A stretch of 64,000 bases of DNA from a phage, in assembly GCA_012401045.1 (NCBI GenBank), contig GCA_012401045.1_4704.2; one strand, 5' to 3'. The position numbers were made by a program, and so were the translations under genes. This document shows, piece after piece, positions 4,086-62,684 of this stretch. The stretch's first letter is position 1. Each line of letters begins with the position of its first letter. The notes under the pieces were generated by a model that made no database searches, was not told the origin of the DNA, and saw only the letters and a list, made by a program, of their open reading frames with translations.

Positions 4086-4117
4086 CATCCTCCCTTCCCT
4101 TACGGGTTGGGAGGATG
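4086..4117. terminator. conserved GC-rich hairpin family, copy between convergent genes
   Basis: CATCCTCCC-TTCCC-TTAC-GGGTT-GGGAGGATG; minus-strand reading has GTAA loop and is followed by GGTTTTT. Confidence 0.5.
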
Positions 4118-11708: not shown

Positions 11709-12071
11709 TTAAAGCGTTCTGAAGAGTTCTGTAGCGTTCTCGTCACGTAGACAGGCTTCGTTCAACAATTCAGCTAACAGCTTCGACCGAACTTCAACAA
11801 ATGTCCTGAGGCGATGCTCCCATTCTAAACGGATAGTGTACGTATTATCCAGGTTTTTGTAATCAACGACAGATGTGGAACAACGGGCTTCGCGTTTGTT
11901 CACAGCACTCCAAACATCACGGATAACCGTCACGCCTTTCTTGGTACACGTAAACGTTAAAATAAAGCGATTATTCGCTGCTTCTTCACGGACATGACTA
12001 AATTCACTTCGTAACGATGAGACTTTGATAAGTCGGTCAATAGCTAACGATAAACCGATACGTTGTTGCAT
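11709..12071 (-). CDS. hypothetical small protein (120 aa)
   Basis: ORF in array of small co-directional genes. Confidence 0.4.
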   Translation of the reverse strand: MQQRIGLSLAIDRLIKVSSLRSEFSHVREEAANNRFILTFTCTKKGVTVIRDVWSAVNKREARCSTSVVDYKNLDNTYTIRLEWEHRLRTFVEVRSKLLAELLNEACLRDENATELFRTL

Positions 12072-12072
12072 A

Positions 12073-12498
12073 TCAAATCCCCTCTTTCAGAATCTCATTA
12101 AGACCGTCAGTAATCCAGTCGAACTTCGTCTTAATCATGGCTGGGTTCAATCCATATACTTCCCACACAAGCTGGGGTTTATGTGTTCCATCGTCCAAAC
12201 AAAGCACATCGATTGAGAGTACCATACCACCCGTCAATTTCATGTTCTCGCAACTACGAAGATATGCGGATTCTAGCAATACTTTCCCTAACGCAGTGCA
12301 AGCAAATGTTAACCGGGAAGAGTACAGGTACGATGACGTTTTACAGTAGGTTGCTGATATCGGTTGAATATGTTTGCGGAGTTTGGCGTCTTCACGTAAA
12401 AGCAATAACGTGTGATGTAACCGCGTATGCTCGGTAACCGATGAGCTATACTCACCGATGCACTCTTCGGCGACTGATTTAGGCCATTTAATTTGCAT
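12073..12498 (-). CDS. hypothetical small protein (141 aa)
   Basis: ORF in array of small co-directional genes; 1-nt gap to next gene. Confidence 0.4.
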   Translation of the reverse strand: MQIKWPKSVAEECIGEYSSSVTEHTRLHHTLLLLREDAKLRKHIQPISATYCKTSSYLYSSRLTFACTALGKVLLESAYLRSCENMKLTGGMVLSIDVLCLDDGTHKPQLVWEVYGLNPAMIKTKFDWITDGLNEILKEGI

Positions 12499-13859: not shown

Positions 13860-14159
13860 TTAAGGTTTAGGTTCCGTTTTGTGTTGTGCGAGTAGTGTGT
13901 TGATCTGCTCCCGTTGTTCTTTTAAGTATGCGGGAAGCTGGTCTTCCCGTACCGTTCCGATTTCCAACGTGATGTACCAGCGTTGTTCGGAAGCCTGCCA
14001 TTGAAAACCGCTCTGTAACCGTAGGATGCTAGGATCACGTACCTTGCTTGCGCTGTAACGGTTGAACCAATCCAGGTATTCTGCTTTCCCTTCCTCGTCG
14101 GCAACGTAACGCTGCACGCTGTTCTTGCCTTTGTTCTCGTATCCCGTTGCACGTATCAT
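13860..14159 (-). CDS. hypothetical small protein (about 99 aa)
   Basis: Start taken at internal ATG 14159, which forms an ATGA overlap with the stop of the upstream gene (track start 14213). Confidence 0.4.
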   Translation of the reverse strand: MIRATGYENKGKNSVQRYVADEEGKAEYLDWFNRYSASKVRDPSILRLQSGFQWQASEQRWYITLEIGTVREDQLPAYLKEQREQINTLLAQHKTEPKP

Positions 14160-14938
14160 GCGAACGTTTCTCCTGTAACGTGTTGTGGACGTTGTAGCAT
14201 GGTAGCATCCCATTGTACGATCCGGCTCCGGCTTACCAGCATCATGACGGATTCATCGTCAAGCCCTGGTTGCGCAACCGGCAACCAACGTTCGTTAAGC
14301 ACCTTCGCTTCAACGCGTTTCTTGCGGGGATTGTAACGCACCTCGCTAACCCAAGCGAACCCAAGTGGATGCACAACCCGCGGATAATACGTGCGAAGCA
14401 ATTGATGCATCCGATCTGTCACCTCCAAGCTCGCCTCCGCCATGTAAGGTTTCACCGTGGTAAGCTTTTTGGTGTAATACGTTCCAACGGTATGGTTACG
14501 CCAACTTGGCAAGGCATGATCCCCTTCTCTCAGTTTGCTATCCGAGTTCATCGGCCAGACCTGCTGTTTACCGGCCAGCATCGCGTACTGCCGATCAACG
14601 CAACGAACCTGATCGGCGAACAATGGATCCAGAACATCATCCACCGCACCCTTATTGCGATAACCGTGATGTACCACCAACCTGCTTGCGCTCATCGATG
14701 CGGGATGCTGGCTCTTATGCGCATACAGCCCTCCGTCACCGCGAGGGTCGTAAAGATAGCCGCATGCGCCACGCCATATCACCTTGCCTACGGTTCTCTC
14801 GTTTTCAAGCAGCATCGTCGGCCCATCAAGCAAATTGGTGAACCACTGCACCTTCACGCATTCCGCTTGGACATGCTCAGGTAATGCCTGATACTCTTTT
14901 TGGGTGTATAAGGTATCAAAAATGATTTCATCGTTCAT
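14156..14938 (-). CDS. hypothetical protein (260 aa)
   Basis: ATG with AGAGGA SD; first gene downstream of promoter-like motif copy 2. Confidence 0.5.
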   Translation of the reverse strand: MNDEIIFDTLYTQKEYQALPEHVQAECVKVQWFTNLLDGPTMLLENERTVGKVIWRGACGYLYDPRGDGGLYAHKSQHPASMSASRLVVHHGYRNKGAVDDVLDPLFADQVRCVDRQYAMLAGKQQVWPMNSDSKLREGDHALPSWRNHTVGTYYTKKLTTVKPYMAEASLEVTDRMHQLLRTYYPRVVHPLGFAWVSEVRYNPRKKRVEAKVLNERWLPVAQPGLDDESVMMLVSRSRIVQWDATMLQRPQHVTGETFA

Positions 14939-15020
14939 TTAAAAGATCCTCTGTTTTTCACGTTAATTAAACAACGTATTGATTTCTATTTGACAGAACA
15001 CGAACATTGTACGTATCTAT

Positions 15021-15044
15021 CACTTAGGTAATATAGCCGTGAAA
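15021..15044 (-). promoter_or_regulatory. conserved 24-bp promoter-like motif, copy 2
   Basis: Identical to copy at 2489-2512; about 80 nt upstream of the 14938 start. Confidence 0.45.
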
Positions 15045-15151
15045 GGATTTGTGTTACTGTAAGGGTTTTGTTTTTAAGAAGGGATGGATTTAGAAGAGGT
15101 GTTTCAAGGAAGGTAAACGAGGATAGGTATTTTGATTTAAGTAAGTAAGAT

Positions 15152-15249
15152 GTTATCTGTATTGTCTAAGTTATCTTGTTTATCTTAGGTTTAAGTTGTT
15201 TTTATTTATCTTGTTTGTATGTTTAAATTAGATCAATAAGCTTATCTTC
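15152..15249. repeat. iteron-like short direct repeats (five TTATCT-containing units) in AT-rich non-coding region
   Basis: GTTATCTGT, GTTATCTTGTT, TATCTTAGG, TTATCTTGTTTG, CTTATCTTC within about 100 bp. Confidence 0.35.
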
Positions 15250-15263
15250 AAAACAATGGATAA

Positions 15264-15311
15264 CATGTGTTTACTACGCTCGTTGAGTTATAACTCAACG
15301 GTAACACATGT
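15264..15311. repeat. nested inverted repeat (ACATGTGTT ... GTTGAGTTATAACTCAAC ... AACACATGT)
   Basis: 18-bp perfect palindrome flanked by 9-bp inverted arms, inside the gene-free region. Confidence 0.35.
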
Positions 15312-15719
15312 CATCTGTGCATTACACTCCGTTACATGCTAGTTAACAACGTTTTGTGAAGACAAAACGTTCAACTCAAAAAACATTTGTGATACTCTTC
15401 TTCACGTTGTTCATCAGAGTATCTCGTCTATACTCATTGCATTCGTATACGACATAACCGTTATACGCTAACGCTACGCTTATAGCTTGATAACTCTAAG
15501 GATAAAAACATAAACTCGCTTCGCTCGTTTAGTTTTTCTTTTTCTTAGAGTTATCCTGTTGCTCGTCTCTAAAGGACTTCGCTCCTCCCCCGTCCCCCGA
15601 AGGGGCCGAGGTCGTGGAAATTTTACTTTCCAAATACATTTACAACATCTGTAAACTTTTACTCCAGGTACTTAATCTTATCATTAGAAATTATAAAAGA
15701 GAATAAACACAAACATAAA

Positions 15720-15752
15720 CCTTCCTCCTTCCCTTACGGGTTGGAGGAAGGG
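15720..15752 (-). terminator. conserved GC-rich hairpin family copy downstream of the 15763-16656 gene
   Basis: Minus-strand reading CCTTCCTCC-AACCC-GTAA-GGGAA-GGAGGAAGG followed by TTTATGTTTG. Confidence 0.5.
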
Positions 15753-15762
15753 AGAGATTAAA

Positions 15763-16656
15763 TTATTCGGAAACGTTATAACCGAATACTGCTTTACCGT
15801 AGGTGTGGGTACCGTCGGTTAACGACACCACTAACACATTGCTGTACGTAGCGTTAACACCCTTGTCGGTAGACCCGGTGGTAACACCGTTATAGACAAA
15901 GGTAGCTGTTTGCAGATTGGTTTTCAGTTCATTGATGATATCATCACTCACACCGGTCTGCTCTTTGATCAGGGTAGTCAGGTTACCTGCCAGGCTTGCA
16001 TCGATCTTGGTTTCGTTACTGGTAATAGCTTGTAAACCTGCAGTGTAGGTGCTGAAGTCTAACGGATAGGTTAACAGACGTGCTGACGTTTTGGTACCAT
16101 CGCCTTCATCAACATAGGTTAAGTTACCCAGGTTGGTAACCTTGATGATGTTAGCCAGATCCAGCGTGGTGTTATAAACTTTAACTTGAACAGAGCCATA
16201 CCACGCCAACGAATCTTCTTTGGCTTCCAGGGTGATCGTCTGGATACCATGATCGTCGAAGGTAACAGGATTAGCTAACGTATCGGCTTTGATGTCTTTC
16301 GCTTTATCCAGGAACTTCTCACCGGAAGGCGTGATCATACCGTAGCGTTGAGCTACAAGGTCAACCACATCACCGATGGTGGTGTTAGCAGTAACGTTAA
16401 CACGTACGGCGATCTTCTGGAACCACTTAGCCAGATCCAGACGATGGTAGGTAACATCGCGTTCATTGAAGTAAGGGGTACCTTCACCAGGGCTAAGCGT
16501 TAAAGTTGCTTCTGGAGCAGAAGCGCTTTTGGATTTAAGAACGTATTTAAGATCACTGTATTGGAAGCTGGCACCAGTGTCGGCGTTGAGCTGGTTGATC
16601 TCATCAACGATAAGTTGCCAAGGTGTTTTTAAAGTAAGTGAAACTTGAGTTGCCAT
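15763..16656 (-). CDS. paralogous virion-type protein family member (297 aa)
   Basis: ATG with GAGGT SD; shares about 90-aa domain (Y-x-R-L-D-L ... YG[ML] ... LAW[YT]GSVQV) with ORFs at 16798, 27716, 29538 and 30400; codon usage biased. Confidence 0.55.
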   Translation of the reverse strand: MATQVSLTLKTPWQLIVDEINQLNADTGASFQYSDLKYVLKSKSASAPEATLTLSPGEGTPYFNERDVTYHRLDLAKWFQKIAVRVNVTANTTIGDVVDLVAQRYGMITPSGEKFLDKAKDIKADTLANPVTFDDHGIQTITLEAKEDSLAWYGSVQVKVYNTTLDLANIIKVTNLGNLTYVDEGDGTKTSARLLTYPLDFSTYTAGLQAITSNETKIDASLAGNLTTLIKEQTGVSDDIINELKTNLQTATFVYNGVTTGSTDKGVNATYSNVLVVSLTDGTHTYGKAVFGYNVSE

Positions 16657-16797
16657 TTTCTACCTCTATGGTTGTTACATCACTCTCAAAAGATGTAAGT
16701 GTTTACAGAAATAAGTATATTTTATATTAATGTAAATAATATGGAGAACGACTCCGAATCTCCTTTTCGACCATCAAAAATCAGAGGACACACAATC

Positions 16798-17340
16798 ATG
16801 GCCTTAGACTTTAACAAAGCAGCGAAATCCCTTCTGCTTGATCTTATTAACACCAAAGCGACCCGCACATTGGCTGAAGAAGAACTGCAGTTCGGTACTC
16901 CGGGGGCATCTTCCGAACATGAAAAGAACACCGTTATTCAGCTGGACGCTGCAGTTGGTGCAGAAAACCTGCAGGGTAGTCAGCAGTTCTACTACGATCG
17001 TCTGGCTCTGTCCGAAGTTTTCGCTGATGTAACCGGCGATGTTACTTTCGAACTGCCGCATGGCACTGACAGCATCCAGGCTTCTGAACTGGTAAGCAAG
17101 CTGGTCACCAAATTCGGCCTGGCTTCCCTGACCGGTGAAATCCAGGAAGAAACCTTCCAGCTGTCTGCAGGTACTGTTGGTCAGGTAACTCTGACTGCGA
17201 TCGAGGGCGGCCTGGTATATACCGGCACCCTGCAGGTTGCACTGACCTACGCAGCTGCACCGAAAGATGACCTGGCAACCGTTCTGGCGAATAACGTAGC
17301 TGAAGGCTTCGAGAAACCGACCGTTAGCGTTGTTGGCTAA
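16798..17340 (+). CDS. short highly expressed paralog of the same family (180 aa), candidate abundant virion protein
   Basis: ATG 16798 with GAGGA SD (track start 16699 lacks RBS); strongly optimised codon usage; two hairpins downstream. Confidence 0.55.
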   Translation: MALDFNKAAKSLLLDLINTKATRTLAEEELQFGTPGASSEHEKNTVIQLDAAVGAENLQGSQQFYYDRLALSEVFADVTGDVTFELPHGTDSIQASELVSKLVTKFGLASLTGEIQEETFQLSAGTVGQVTLTAIEGGLVYTGTLQVALTYAAAPKDDLATVLANNVAEGFEKPTVSVVG

Positions 17341-27674: not shown

Positions 27675-27706
27675 CCCTCCTCCAACCCGTAAGGGAAGGA
27701 GGAGGG
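27675..27706. terminator. conserved GC-rich hairpin family copy (CCCTCCTCC-AACCC-GTAA-GGGAA-GGAGGAGGG)
   Basis: Between convergent genes; GNRA-type GTAA loop closed by CCC/GGG. Confidence 0.5.
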
Positions 27707-31394: not shown

Positions 31395-33875
31395 TTAAAC
31401 GTCCTCGATAGGCAAAGGTTTAACAATCAAACGATTGAGCGGATTCGATAGACGCATACTGATAGGCTTATACGCAACATGATTCGTCTCACTTAGAGCC
31501 ACTGATCTGAAACGACCGTTCAACTGTTTGTAAATCGGTTCTATCCAGAGACCTCGAAGATCACGTTTACGGAAACGTTGTTCGAACGGTTTGATTGGGG
31601 TTACGGTTAACCCACGCAACGACTCTGACGGTAAACGCTCACGAAGGTCGCGTGGTGCCCGACCTGGGAACGGTGCAAGCCACAAACCATCGAGCGGATT
31701 TTTACGGAAACGCAACGAGACAGGATCGCTAATGACTTGTGCCCAATATTGCGTACTGAATCGAACCGTTTGGGTATTCTCGTAACCGCTACAATCACAC
31801 CAGGTTGGTTTCGGAGGCGCTTCCAAACTTTCAACCGCTGATTCACGCCAGTTCGTCATCGGGTTGTTATCATGCACGAATTTGATAACTTCCGTAGCCT
31901 GGTTATCCGTATCATGAACGTTTGCCTGTGCCCAGTCTTCCCACAGTTCTTCACTACCACTTACTAAACTCGAACCGAGACGAACGGCGATTTTGTTTAG
32001 TGGTTTGATTGGGTCACTGTTGATTGTCTGGATAAAATGGATGGTGTAACTGCTCAATGTCTTAAGCAGCTGCAGCATTCCGTATTGAATATCCTTAAGA
32101 CTGGTGACATCTTCCAAATCCTGGCCGGTGGCCTTTGTGAAGATATCGAGAGCCAGAATACCCGCCTCTTCTTGACTGATTGCGTCAAGCTCCCAATCCA
32201 TCGATAAGAACCATTCCTTGTAAAGCTGTCCAATACCGAAGTCGACACCAACATCCATGTAGAAGTTTTCAACGATGGCTTCAGCCATGCCTCGAGCTTG
32301 ATAATGTTCTTGGAGCTGATACATGAACTGATGACGACGCCAGCCCTGGTAGATCTCGGTAACGGCGCTCAGAAACTCTTCAGTACTGACGACAGCACGC
32401 AGCGTCACTTGCTTATCCAAACACCACCAGATCAGTTTATCGGGAATGATAGCAGGATCGGTAATGCTACGGAGATGGTCGAATGTCGGTAGCGTTAACA
32501 CCCTGACGTGGTTAGCATGGATCTTAGGTACTTCAATCAGCGTCATGCCCATCGAATAGTTCAGCAAATACAAGAACAGCTTGTAGGCATCTTTCATCGA
32601 CATCGTCATGGTATCACCCGTCACCGGGTTGGTTGTCGTTAACCGTGACTGATACATGCCTATTGCGCTAAGATGAATCCATTCATTCAGCAGGAAATCA
32701 TACTTAGGATACAATTCACTGTCTGTAAGGTCTTCGGCTTCACTTTCCAACACCTTGGTCGTTAAGGTATTGTTGTCATGCATCGACATTTTCTCTATCG
32801 TGCGGTTAAGCTCGGTATAATACTCCGCTTCGTTATCCCGCGCTAGAGGGAACTGTTGCTGCATCACGGTGGTGACCTTACGTCTTACCGTGCCATTACC
32901 GACGATCTCTTGAAGGTTAAGCGGTTTACGCTCCATGTAAACTGCGGGTTTTAACGTCTGGGGTATCTCGGAAGCGTCTTGTTTGATCGAGAACGCACCG
33001 ATTGGAATCCCACGATCGGTTAATACCTTTTGAATGAGCTTATCGTAGTTTTCCGTTCTGCCCATGTTTCTTTCAACGTAAGCGATGTTACGATAGAACC
33101 AGAGCATTTGGGATTCGGTCATGTACCGCTTGAATCGATCAAGGCCTTGATGGCTTGCCAGATAACTCCAGATATGGAAGCTATGGGCATAATGGGTATG
33201 ACAGTTTTCCCAACGAATACCTTTTATCATCTCAGGTATTTGTGTGAATAGGATGGCGTATAGCGCAGGCCAATGAAGCATATCGACGCTCTCGTATGCC
33301 GGATGTTCCCAGCGTCTGAAGTAATCGTCGATTTCTTGCTGTAAACGTGGAATAAGATTGGCCTCGCGTGACTCAACCTCTTGTCTATCGTACCAGAGAA
33401 TCTCATGATTGCGTGCCGCAATTGCTTTCTCGATATCGATGGGGTTAAGGATACCCAAGATCAACATACGTTGTTCCGGGTACCGCGCAATTAAACGATT
33501 GAAATAATCTCCGCCATACGCGTATTCCCTTGCCGTCATGCGATGCCGTAACATGTTTTCCTTGGTGAACTCGATCTCTTCGAGCGTATCCAGGGAATTT
33601 ACGGTCATCATTGTCTGACAAGGATGATACTCGCCAGCGAGATTCATGTAGTATAACCACGTGCGTGGGTCGTCCCCGACGGCCATCTGGTAGACTTCGG
33701 AAACCTTGAGGTTTAACCGTTCTGCCGTGATGTCGCTTTTAATAATCAGGGTGTCCGTTAGACGCTGCACGCTTTCCGAATAAAGCTGATAGTCAGTGTT
33801 GGACACGATCGGTCCTCCAAGGAGCCAGTGTAAATGAACGATATAAATAAAGGGCGCGTCGCCCTCGAACGTCAA
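31395..33875 (-). CDS. large hypothetical protein (about 803-826 aa) with C-terminal RFRK...GLW repeats
   Basis: Track start is TTG at 33875; a GTG at 33806 with GGAGGA SD is the more likely start; internal repeat RFRKNPLDGLWLAPFP / RFRKRDLRGLWIEPIY. Confidence 0.5.
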   Translation of the reverse strand: MTFEGDAPFIYIVHLHWLLGGPIVSNTDYQLYSESVQRLTDTLIIKSDITAERLNLKVSEVYQMAVGDDPRTWLYYMNLAGEYHPCQTMMTVNSLDTLEEIEFTKENMLRHRMTAREYAYGGDYFNRLIARYPEQRMLILGILNPIDIEKAIAARNHEILWYDRQEVESREANLIPRLQQEIDDYFRRWEHPAYESVDMLHWPALYAILFTQIPEMIKGIRWENCHTHYAHSFHIWSYLASHQGLDRFKRYMTESQMLWFYRNIAYVERNMGRTENYDKLIQKVLTDRGIPIGAFSIKQDASEIPQTLKPAVYMERKPLNLQEIVGNGTVRRKVTTVMQQQFPLARDNEAEYYTELNRTIEKMSMHDNNTLTTKVLESEAEDLTDSELYPKYDFLLNEWIHLSAIGMYQSRLTTTNPVTGDTMTMSMKDAYKLFLYLLNYSMGMTLIEVPKIHANHVRVLTLPTFDHLRSITDPAIIPDKLIWWCLDKQVTLRAVVSTEEFLSAVTEIYQGWRRHQFMYQLQEHYQARGMAEAIVENFYMDVGVDFGIGQLYKEWFLSMDWELDAISQEEAGILALDIFTKATGQDLEDVTSLKDIQYGMLQLLKTLSSYTIHFIQTINSDPIKPLNKIAVRLGSSLVSGSEELWEDWAQANVHDTDNQATEVIKFVHDNNPMTNWRESAVESLEAPPKPTWCDCSGYENTQTVRFSTQYWAQVISDPVSLRFRKNPLDGLWLAPFPGRAPRDLRERLPSESLRGLTVTPIKPFEQRFRKRDLRGLWIEPIYKQLNGRFRSVALSETNHVAYKPISMRLSNPLNRLIVKPLPIEDV

Positions 33876-48037: not shown

Positions 48038-48069
48038 CCCTCCTCCAACCCGTAAGGGAAGGAGGAAGG
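48038..48069. terminator. conserved GC-rich hairpin family copy, flanked by A13/T13 homopolymer
   Basis: CCCTCCTCC-AACCC-GTAA-GGGAA-GGAGGAAGG; preceded by 13 A at about 48012-48026. Confidence 0.5.
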
Positions 48070-48085
48070 TTTATGACCGCTTTGA

Positions 48086-51419: not shown

Positions 51420-51451
51420 CCCTCTCCCAACCCGTAAGGGAAGGGAGAGGG
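51420..51451 (-). terminator. conserved GC-rich hairpin family copy
   Basis: CCCTCTCCC-AACCC-GTAA-GGGAA-GGGAGAGGG just past the stop of the 51456-52823 gene. Confidence 0.5.
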
Positions 51452-62545: not shown

Positions 62546-62652
62546 TTGGGACTCCTACGTAGGAAAATCTTGGCGGGTGATCATGTCCGCCATTTACCTT
62601 CTGAACCGTTGATTCAGAAGTCAAAAGATAACCGGATACCAACGCCATAAAC

Positions 62653-62684
62653 CTTCCTCCAACCCAACAGGGAAGGAGGAAGGG
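62653..62684 (-). terminator. conserved GC-rich hairpin family copy (loop variant AACA)
   Basis: CCTTCCTCC-AACCC-AACA-GGGAA-GGAGGAAGG; minus strand followed by TTTATGGCG. Confidence 0.5.

Follow-up and report, generated by a model that had tools for sequence, protein, structure and literature searches.

A candidate structured non-coding RNA gene in a gene-free gap of Goslar-like jumbo phages

Phage phiKZ produces short structured RNAs that derive from intergenic regions and untranslated regions (UTRs), are conserved within the genus, and have been detected experimentally by Grad-seq, dRNA-seq and ONT-cappable-seq (PMC10914365, PMC8244752). For Escherichia phage vB_EcoM_Goslar, a 237-kb nucleus-forming chimallivirus that serves as the Escherichia coli model of nucleus-forming jumbo phages, the replication origin, the middle and late promoters, and the RNA biology are largely unmapped. 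Here we consider a stretch of 64,000 nt (hereafter, the window; contig GCA_012401045.1_4704.2 of the assembly GCA_012401045.1) which covers the initial 64 kb of a jumbo phage of E. coli that is ~90% identical to Goslar, and, in particular, the gap at positions 14939-15762. As the initial annotation of this DNA had pointed out, the gap is by far the longest gene-free stretch of the window: it extends for 824 nt without an open reading frame (ORF) of at least 50 aa, the runner-up being 243 nt long. The gap contains an ultraconserved structured block that, in our assessment, is probably, if by no means certainly, a previously undescribed stand-alone non-coding RNA gene of Goslar-like jumbo phages, encoded on the minus strand.

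The block resembles the phiKZ RNAs in that it belongs to a nucleus-forming chimallivirus, is a short structured element in a terminator-bounded gap, and is conserved at the genus level. Unlike those RNAs, it would correspond to ~250-310 nt rather than 70-200 nt and is far more conserved than its flanks, and it has no detectable sequence similarity to them; furthermore, the phiKZ RNAs have been seen on northern blots, whereas the block is known here from its sequence alone. The RNA of the block would, then, be an unrelated and unusually well-conserved addition to the phiKZ-type structured RNAs. A non-coding block of ~300 nt beside fast-evolving early genes is a strong candidate for an essential RNA or a cis element, and it is directly testable, given that RNA-seq data on Goslar infection exist and that both knock-down by dCas13d and selection by Cas13a work on these phages.

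The Goslar counterpart of the gap (MK327938, 14975-15817; ~85-90% identity) carries no annotation and is located between two minus-strand genes, Goslar_00021, which is hypothetical, and Goslar_00022, which encodes a DUF7941 virion structural protein; besides Goslar, a blastn search at 65-70% sensitivity yielded no match to the gap among 50,697 phage records. The identity between the window and Goslar is mosaic, and longer pairwise perfect runs occur outside the block, so that only a comparison of multiple genomes is decisive for the conservation of the block. One such run (11930-12494) is 100% identical to Goslar over 565 nt and two small early genes, and adjoins segments with 65-85% identity. 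The homologous gap was gathered from 17 Goslar-like genomes by two routes, namely, via relatives of the virion-protein gene (11 genomes: Goslar, two IMG/VR contigs, and eight metagenome contigs) and via a protein database with subsequent contig look-up (five genomes). Some of the source contigs form part of Salmonella, Shigella and E. coli genome assemblies. Two remoter lineages, in which the virion gene is 52% (L025) and 56% (L028) identical, were retrieved as well.

The comparison reveals extreme conservation. A run of 299 nt (15384-15682) is identical in four phages the flanks of which differ by 10-40%, and the second longest four-way run within ~10 kb is 107 nt; the fully invariant core of the block spans 15384-15663. 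In ten genomes, the nucleotide diversity (pi) of the block is 0.0049, compared to 0.076, 0.052 and 0.18 at the first, second and third codon positions of the adjacent virion gene, that is, the block is ~10-fold less diverse than even the second codon positions of its neighbor. On its other side, the protein encoded by gene 14156..14938 is only ~61% identical between the window and Goslar. In the five relatives obtained by the second route, the block is kept and scores 336-377 bits (the self-score of the profile is 376); for four of these relatives, the virion gene is 76-82% identical. Two clades can be discerned, which differ in the block only at its 5' edge, in hairpin H6 and at the apex of hairpin H11b (see below), and retain perfect stretches of 100 nt. 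One relative, L026 (ENA ERZ926329), is a recombinant within the block, with clade II variants in the 5' part and clade I variants in the 3' part.

This conservation is not accompanied by any sign of coding or of membership in a described family. No ORF with a usable ribosome-binding site was found in the block, and conservation above the neutral level in a sequence without coding potential is what is expected of a non-coding RNA. A search of Rfam 15 at permissive thresholds with the region 14000-17000 and with the block alone gave chance-level scores of 15-18 bits (the thresholds are 34-45), ARAGORN detected no tRNA or tmRNA in the region, and nhmmer found no paralog of the block in the Goslar genome. 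A host origin is unlikely inasmuch as no similarity to the block was found in 5,426 E. coli genomes and its core motif does not occur in any of 185,579 species genomes; among the 2.9 million viral contigs of IMG/VR, three core patterns matched only three Goslar-like contigs. Nor does anything support mobility or extra copies of the block, which is single-copy and always occupies the same position. Two specific functions were considered and rejected, namely, a CsrA-type GGA sponge, the best ACAGGAU site of which is lost in L010 and in clade II, and a mimic of the E. coli type I-E or I-F CRISPR repeat, to which there is no real resemblance in a by-eye comparison.

The consensus of the 17 sequences is a row of eight hairpins (Table 1). 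Both strands of the block fold well (minimum free energy z = -6.2 and -5.9), and the minus strand folds better, both as a single sequence (-119.8 versus -100.8 kcal/mol) and as a consensus (-86.7 versus -68.7 kcal/mol, an advantage of 18). In this alignment, 99.9% of the 1,343 cells that make up the 79 pairs are in standard pairs. Compensatory changes are seen in three pairs (11 cells), whereas 71 pairs never vary, so that most of the helices are neither supported nor contradicted by covariation. Specifically, the pair 106-127 in H6 is C-G in 12 sequences, U-G in four and U-A in one, and two pairs in H11b, 274-280 and 275-279, switch from A-U/U-A to G-C/C-G in four to six sequences. None of 500 shuffles reached the observed level, and sliding the partners by 1-3 columns gave at most one cell. 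In the series from C-G to U-A, the U·G intermediate can pair on the minus strand alone. In a 12-sequence analysis, pairing survives on the minus strand in 14 of the 18 variant cells and on the plus strand in seven, a comparison that is biased because the structure itself was derived from the minus strand. Two earlier elements of this picture were abandoned: a single long hairpin H11 was replaced by H11a and H11b once the clade II sequences were included, and the UUCG tetraloop turned out to be an unreliable strand marker given that the H6 loop is flipped in L011.

One module recurs among the hairpins: the H10 apex (UAAAC-GA-GC-GAA-GC-GA-GUUUA) and H11b (UAUAC-GA-AU-GCA-AU-GA-GUAUA) share one design, namely, a stem, tandem G·A mismatches, a 2-bp stem, and a G-N-A triloop; the triloop variants GCA, GUA and GAA all retain the G-N-A pattern, and a third GAA-loop element (GGAGCGAAGUCC) is found in H7. 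On the plus strand, the same module would consist of U/C mismatches and pyrimidine loops, which, in our reading, speaks further for the minus strand. Mini-hairpins of the d(GCGAAGC) type, closed by a GNA triloop, are unusually stable in both DNA and RNA. The block contains GCGAAGC at the H10 apex, and the H11b apex, AUGCAAU, is replaced by GCGAAGC in clade II, with the GUA variant also keeping G-N-A; this is a likeness at the level of the motif that assigns no family, and, in the block, the motif sits on tandem G·A mismatches within longer stems. The recurrence of the GA/GNA module hints at a protein-binding site that would be used repeatedly.

Candidate signals are present at both edges of the block. 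The 12-nt palindromic motif GTAAAAGTTTAC, with which the invariant core opens, is a candidate promoter, operator or processing signal. It is invariant in the 17 relatives and is kept as GTAAGAGTTTAC in the distant L028. In Goslar, the motif occurs as four exact copies plus one with a single mismatch, each of the five lying either in an intergenic region or at the end of a gene, and by our estimate chance would give ~0.03 exact copies; a sixth match (one mismatch, coding, position 32330) looks like chance. Besides the copy in the gap, these are located at 81200 (+), 173098 (-), 176758 (+) and 188961 (+) in MK327938. Of these copies, one precedes the chmA early promoter, another one is located 79 nt upstream of a homing-endonuclease gene, and two are found at the 5' side of other non-coding stretches of Goslar (176545-176770 on the minus strand and 188955-189150 on the plus strand), which fold with z = -4.5 and -5.2. 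The former stretch terminates in a canonical terminator and the latter in a long GC-rich hairpin. These two stretches may themselves be RNA genes built like the block.

The phiKZ homologue of chmA is served by two promoters, one early and one middle, and the middle promoters of this phage are described as an A-rich run with TACT behind it, ~22 nt ahead of the start (PMC8244752). The motif GTAAAAGTTTAC may be a middle-type promoter, as it loosely fits this description, with an operator or a processing site being equally possible. Immediately upstream, the TATAAT-like box and the adjacent TGATAAG appear to partly resemble the early-promoter family TAYATTACC-N3-4-TGATAAG, the likeness being weak. 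The organization of L028 is instructive in this respect: this phage keeps the 5' module, that is, GTAAGAGTTTAC followed by AATGTATT and by an equivalent of H6 with a C-G to G-C change, which is succeeded by ~250 nt of unrelated purine-rich sequence, a canonical terminator (a GC-rich hairpin with a U-rich tail, at the position of the U-run of the block) and, further on, an early promoter.

From these observations, we infer the following scenario for the transcription, the ends and the function of the block RNA. The phage's own RNA polymerases would, presumably, transcribe the block starting at its 5' edge, where the GTAAAAGTTTAC motif or, alternatively, the TATAAT/TGATAAG element that precedes it would serve as the promoter; the product would be a minus-strand RNA of ~250-310 nt that extends from ~15685/15630 to the U-run. 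The RNA would fold as a string of eight hairpins, in which the repeated modules (the H10 apex and H11b, along with the third GAA-loop hairpin as a variation on the same theme) would bind a protein, and might act during infection as a stable ribonucleoprotein, a scaffold or a decoy. The gene would, thus, be squeezed between the terminator of a late gene and the upstream region of the early operon, and some read-through may extend into that operon. A more far-reaching version, which we regard as decidedly improbable, holds that the block is an essential structural RNA of a phage ribonucleoprotein or else the RNA-plus-DNA core of a replication start, from which a structured primer transcript would run into the most AT-rich stretch of the genome; in that case, the structured modules with GTAAAAGTTTAC at other places in the genome would belong to one system with the block.

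Several considerations weigh against an RNA gene. The promoter and the 3' end are guesses, each being a candidate element, a canonical terminator was found in the distant L028 only, and H12 with the six U residues behind it makes a poor intrinsic terminator, with an AU-rich stem of 8 bp, a 17-nt loop, and a 7-nt spacer. The covariation amounts to three pairs and a few independent events in two clades, most of the block being invariant. The near-total invariance, which includes loops and linkers, exceeds that of most RNAs, and recombination sweeps could account for part of it, L026 being a recombinant within the block. The stems are equally conserved as double-stranded DNA, and the flipped H6 loop of L011 places UUCG on the opposite strand. 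The published description of Goslar RNA-seq during infection is at the level of genes only (PMC10541120), and expression of the block is a prediction. Finally, L025 has no block at all, its terminator abutting the early promoter; together with the different 3' part in L028, this implies that the element is lineage-specific and that its 3' part has been exchanged in the course of evolution.

The gap as a whole is a composite of five parts, taken here in the leftward reading of the minus strand, on which both flanking genes lie; its anatomy, as derived from the alignments of multiple relatives and a listing of the spacer, is given in Table 1.

Table 1. Elements of the gap, in order of reading on the minus strand
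Feature	Position	Strand	Remarks
Intrinsic terminator hairpin	15720..15751	-	of virion-protein gene 15763..16656 (-); U-rich tail UUUAUGUUUGUGUUUAUU
TATAAT-like box, then TGATAAG	15683..15697	-	candidate block promoter; alignments and by-eye comparison with Goslar early promoters
Ultraconserved structured block	15384..15685	-	candidate non-coding RNA; conservation, fold, compensatory pairs
12-nt palindromic motif GTAAAAGTTTAC	15651..15662	-	opens invariant core at 5' edge
H4	15638-15656	-	block hairpin
H5	15615-15632	-	block hairpin
H6	15588-15611	-	block hairpin
H7	15572-15587	-	block hairpin
H9/10	15490-15554	-	block hairpin
H11a	15454-15483	-	block hairpin
H11b	15426-15453	-	block hairpin
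H12	15391-15423	-	block hairpin
U6 run	15376..15381	-	presumed RNA 3' end; columns beyond diverge completely in 17 relatives
Hypervariable AT-rich spacer	15151..15375	no strand	alignment of relatives; holds repeats, nested inverted repeat, one hairpin
Spacer hairpin	15348-15371		some relatives only
Nested inverted repeat	15259-15315		contains 20-nt palindrome 15281-15300
Five TTATCT repeats	15153-15247		within spacer
Conserved tract	15046..15150	-	pyrimidine-rich on minus, purine-rich on plus; directly upstream of early promoter
Early-type (virion RNA polymerase) promoter motif TTTCACGGCTATATTACCTAAGTGA	15020..15044	-	for gene 14156..14938 and small genes behind it
5' leader	14939..15019	-	~85-90 nt, gene 14156..14938; 16 relatives compared

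The initial annotation, made from the letters of the window, had described the gap as an AT-rich region bounded by a promoter-like motif and a family hairpin, and had offered a replication origin, a regulatory hub, or non-coding RNAs as its possible roles. The description holds: the GC content of the sub-blocks of the gap is 0.30-0.40, as compared to 0.469 in the window; the promoter-like motif is real, its 25 nt at 15020-15044 being identical to 2488-2512; and so is the hairpin at 15720-15751, which has five further family copies in the window. Among the roles, a non-coding RNA is favored by the evidence, but for the block, of which the annotation had flagged only the CCCC-GAAG-GGG hairpin (present as CCCCCGAAGGGG at ~15595-15606). 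The gap is also a regulatory hub in the simple sense that it contains a terminator, an early-type promoter, and a leader, whereas the origin, having been built on TTATCT repeats and palindromes, is weakened because neither is conserved in relatives. The close relatives all retain a gene-free gap of 830-890 nt, and no conserved protein gene, the finding that the initial annotation had named as a refutation, is present there.

The eye-catching repeats and palindromes belong to the least conserved portion of the gap. The five TTATCT copies are there as annotated (15153, 15171, 15180, 15206 and 15242, all on the plus strand, spanning 95 nt), and the hexamer occurs 45 times on the two strands of the whole window. 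Their spacing is irregular (18, 9, 26 and 36 nt), and the number of copies, which read AGATAA on the other strand, ranges from zero to six per relative, with none in L011. The palindrome, CGTTGAGTTATAACTCAACG, is perfect but measures 20 nt, not the 18 bp originally given; it is indeed enclosed in a larger inverted repeat, with 13-nt arms (15259-15271 and 15303-15315) that are 92% complementary, and its core is a 16-nt insertion unique to this window. The distance between the block and the early promoter varies from 123 nt in L011 to 444 nt in L014. The loop of the spacer hairpin is flipped, reading TCTTCA in the window and TGAAGA in those relatives that have the hairpin. Together with H6, the equivalent of which in L011 carries CGAA for UUCG, this makes two hairpins of the gap with loops that are exactly reverse-complemented between relatives, which suggests repeated hairpin inversion or template switching of the DNA. 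In view of the irregular spacing, the variable copy number, the variable spacer, the window-specific insertion, and the flipped loop, these elements do not fit initiator-binding iterons and, rather, fit AT-rich DNA liable to slippage and template switching. A general caution follows, namely, that repeats and palindromes which catch the eye in gaps of this kind can be evolutionary noise, with plain sequence alongside them carrying the signal.

Among the alternatives to an RNA gene, the one that fares best, although we deem it unlikely, is that the block acts as DNA, either as a replication origin or as another cis site, in such a way that a structured transcript primes the adjacent AT-rich region or that a protein binds the palindromic GTAAAAGTTTAC and the hairpin modules. 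With iteron origins, such as lambda ori, plasmid oriV and T4 oriE, the gap shares AT-richness, clustered direct repeats, proximity to promoters, and the status of the largest non-coding gap. The requisite AT-rich region for unwinding is present: the minimum 300-nt GC content of the whole Goslar genome (0.283) falls in the AT-rich part of the gap, and the nine 300-nt windows that start at 14901-15301 in Goslar are all among the 25 lowest-GC windows of its 237 kb. Conserved direct repeats with constant spacing are missing: the TTATCT repeats have a 6-nt core and the irregularity and variable number described above, and the length of the spacer varies among relatives. There is no initiator-like gene nearby (no Pfam, PHROG or PADLOC match, and no PDB match for the nearest gene), an unrecognised initiator being possible. 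The cumulative GC skew of the whole Goslar genome, a check proposed in the initial annotation, shows no inflection near 15 kb and, hence, no switch of strand composition; this test is weak because the profile is dominated by the direction of transcription, that is, by gene orientation.

With transcript-primed origins, exemplified by ColE1 RNA II, the primary origin of T7, and T4 oriF/oriG, the locus has in common a candidate promoter, a structured or G-rich transcript (the G-rich run of the block is GGGGGACGGGGGAGGAG) that would enter an AT-rich region when transcribed on the minus strand, and a phage-encoded RNase H homologue, which Goslar possesses. This likeness is purely architectural, and the AT-rich region of the gap is unconserved in both sequence and length. 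We know of no mapped chimallivirus origin, and a narrow literature search turned up none. As for a protein-binding DNA site, the 12-nt motif is palindromic, a common trait of such sites, and its occurrences in Goslar are limited to five places; the complete invariance of the block would also suit DNA that is read by several proteins. Yet the substitutions in the block keep pairing through G·U, which argues for a single-stranded, minus-strand form, and L025 does without the element.

A role in cis within a longer mRNA, whether as a long structured leader (attenuator or antiterminator) of middle-phase transcription into the early operon or as a region of RNase III-type processing and stability where the two transcription units meet, appears rather unlikely as well. 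The order of the block, the spacer and the early promoter is kept in 17 of 17 relatives and in L028, and H9/10, a hairpin of 25 bp interrupted by an internal loop, is about the size of the RNase III sites of phage T7. The presence of GTAAAAGTTTAC upstream of the chmA early promoter, in conjunction with the early and middle promoters of the phiKZ chmA homologue (PMC8244752), also favors a leader, as does the observation that phiKZ makes many short RNAs through premature termination in leaders (PMC10914365). The block and the next gene are, though, separated by an early promoter of its own and by the 123-444 nt of freely varying sequence; the downstream genes are hypervariable and differ among the relatives, whereas the block does not; and the conservation is far above what a simple attenuator would need. 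There is complementarity between the H12 loop (AACAACGU) and the leader sequence ACGUUGUU of the next gene, but we rejected a functional pairing of the two: in L014 and L024, the leader is altered and the loop is not, so that they fail to co-vary.

It is still harder to view the block as functionless for the phage, that is, as a selfish or recombination-homogenised sequence that owes its low diversity to recent spread between lineages and contains hairpins prone to template switching, and we consider this very unlikely. The mosaic identity between the window and Goslar, with the 565-nt perfect run noted above, the recombination within the block in L026, the adjoining hypervariable region, and the hairpin loops flipped at least twice in the gap, which are DNA-level events, are all in line with such a view. 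Against it, the block has no associated endonuclease or transposase gene; it is a single copy at a fixed position, absent outside Goslar-like phages in the viral contigs, species genomes and E. coli genomes searched; and the clades that diverge in the block keep perfect 100-nt stretches and differ by compensatory changes. That the block encodes a small protein, such as that of the 36-aa ORF 15639..15529 (-), which is open in all relatives and has four synonymous changes among eight codon changes, is extremely unlikely because this ORF has no Shine-Dalgarno sequence, its peptide is of low complexity (…GDGGGAK…KKKKN), the changes clustered within it amount to an exactly flipped hairpin loop together with compensation in the stem, and the sole ORF with a nearby GAGG has a spacing of 2 nt.

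Turning to the flanks of the block, the hairpin at 15720-15751 has the features of an intrinsic terminator, with a stem of 9+3 pairs that is 100% paired in 12 relatives and includes one compensatory pair, and with a U-rich tail on the minus strand only. The other family copies in the window are located at 48041-48075, 27678-27703, 62652-62683, 4093-4110 and 51427-51444; the family is near-identical (CCTTCCTCC..CCC-loop-GGG..GGAGGAAGG), and the copy in the gap has an internal mismatch that is TT/TT in the window and AA/AA in Goslar. TATG just past the terminator was considered as a late promoter and dismissed: it is invariant, yet it is part of the U-tail of the family elsewhere and, hence, is not diagnostic.

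At the opposite end of the gap, the early-type promoter reads CTATATTACCTAAGTGA, as compared to TTATATTACCTAGGTGA upstream of chmA, and has nine intergenic copies in Goslar. The second copy in the window (minus strand) lies 27 nt upstream of an ATG. The early promoters of chimalliviruses are described as a conserved AT-rich element of ~10 nt near -10 (PMC7598289), and expression of chmA is seen from 5 min post-infection onward (PMC10541120). Because this family precedes chmA, along with about eight other Goslar genes, and fits the published description, we read the motif as an early promoter of the virion RNA polymerase; the likeness covers only ~25 nt of the gap, and the transcription start for gene 14156..14938 is predicted. 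The length of the ensuing leader agrees with the distance of ~91 nt reported for two Goslar genes (PMC10541120), and the part of the leader nearest the gene (…AATACGTTGTTTAATTAACGTGAAA…AGAGGA) is conserved, the start codon being at 14938. A sigma-70-like TTGACA-N17-TATCTA on the plus strand (14991-15020) was discarded, given its weak -10 box and its absence from the output of a promoter scan.

The conserved tract upstream of the early promoter holds a 50-nt run that is identical in four phages (15072-15121), and is partly retained in L011 as CTATCCTC, ACCTTCCTTGA and CATCCCTTCTTAA. It is specific to the upstream region of this promoter. Its plus strand carries several Shine-Dalgarno-like motifs (AAGGAAGG/AGAAGAGG); the minus strand is CU-rich, with CACCUCUUCU resembling the 3' end of 16S rRNA.

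Gene 14156-14938, the first of the early operon on the minus strand, is hypervariable, with 61% protein identity to its Goslar orthologue and nucleotide identity of 50-57% over 14536-14917, next to neighboring genes with 90-100%; downstream of its counterpart, L009 has extra paralogous genes. Neither this gene nor the six genes downstream of it had a Pfam, PHROG or PADLOC match, the first gene also had no PDB sequence match, and these domain searches offered no link between gene content and an RNA.

Two further observations concern the Goslar-like phages at large. Their virion-protein genes (P0007, P0011, P0020, P0027, P0034 and P0043) were found on contigs of 180-245 kb inside bacterial assemblies of Salmonella enterica, Shigella flexneri and E. 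coli, so that the group has a wider host range and is sampled more densely than one would gather from the phage databases. In addition, the other 820-nt unannotated gap of Goslar contains, at 82405-82923 (+) (L017 42405-42923), a match to the group I intron family RF00028, with 44.7 bits and E = 1.5e-9, just below the gathering score and unannotated in the record; it adjoins an HNH/NUMOD1 endonuclease gene and a gene for a DNA polymerase exonuclease domain.

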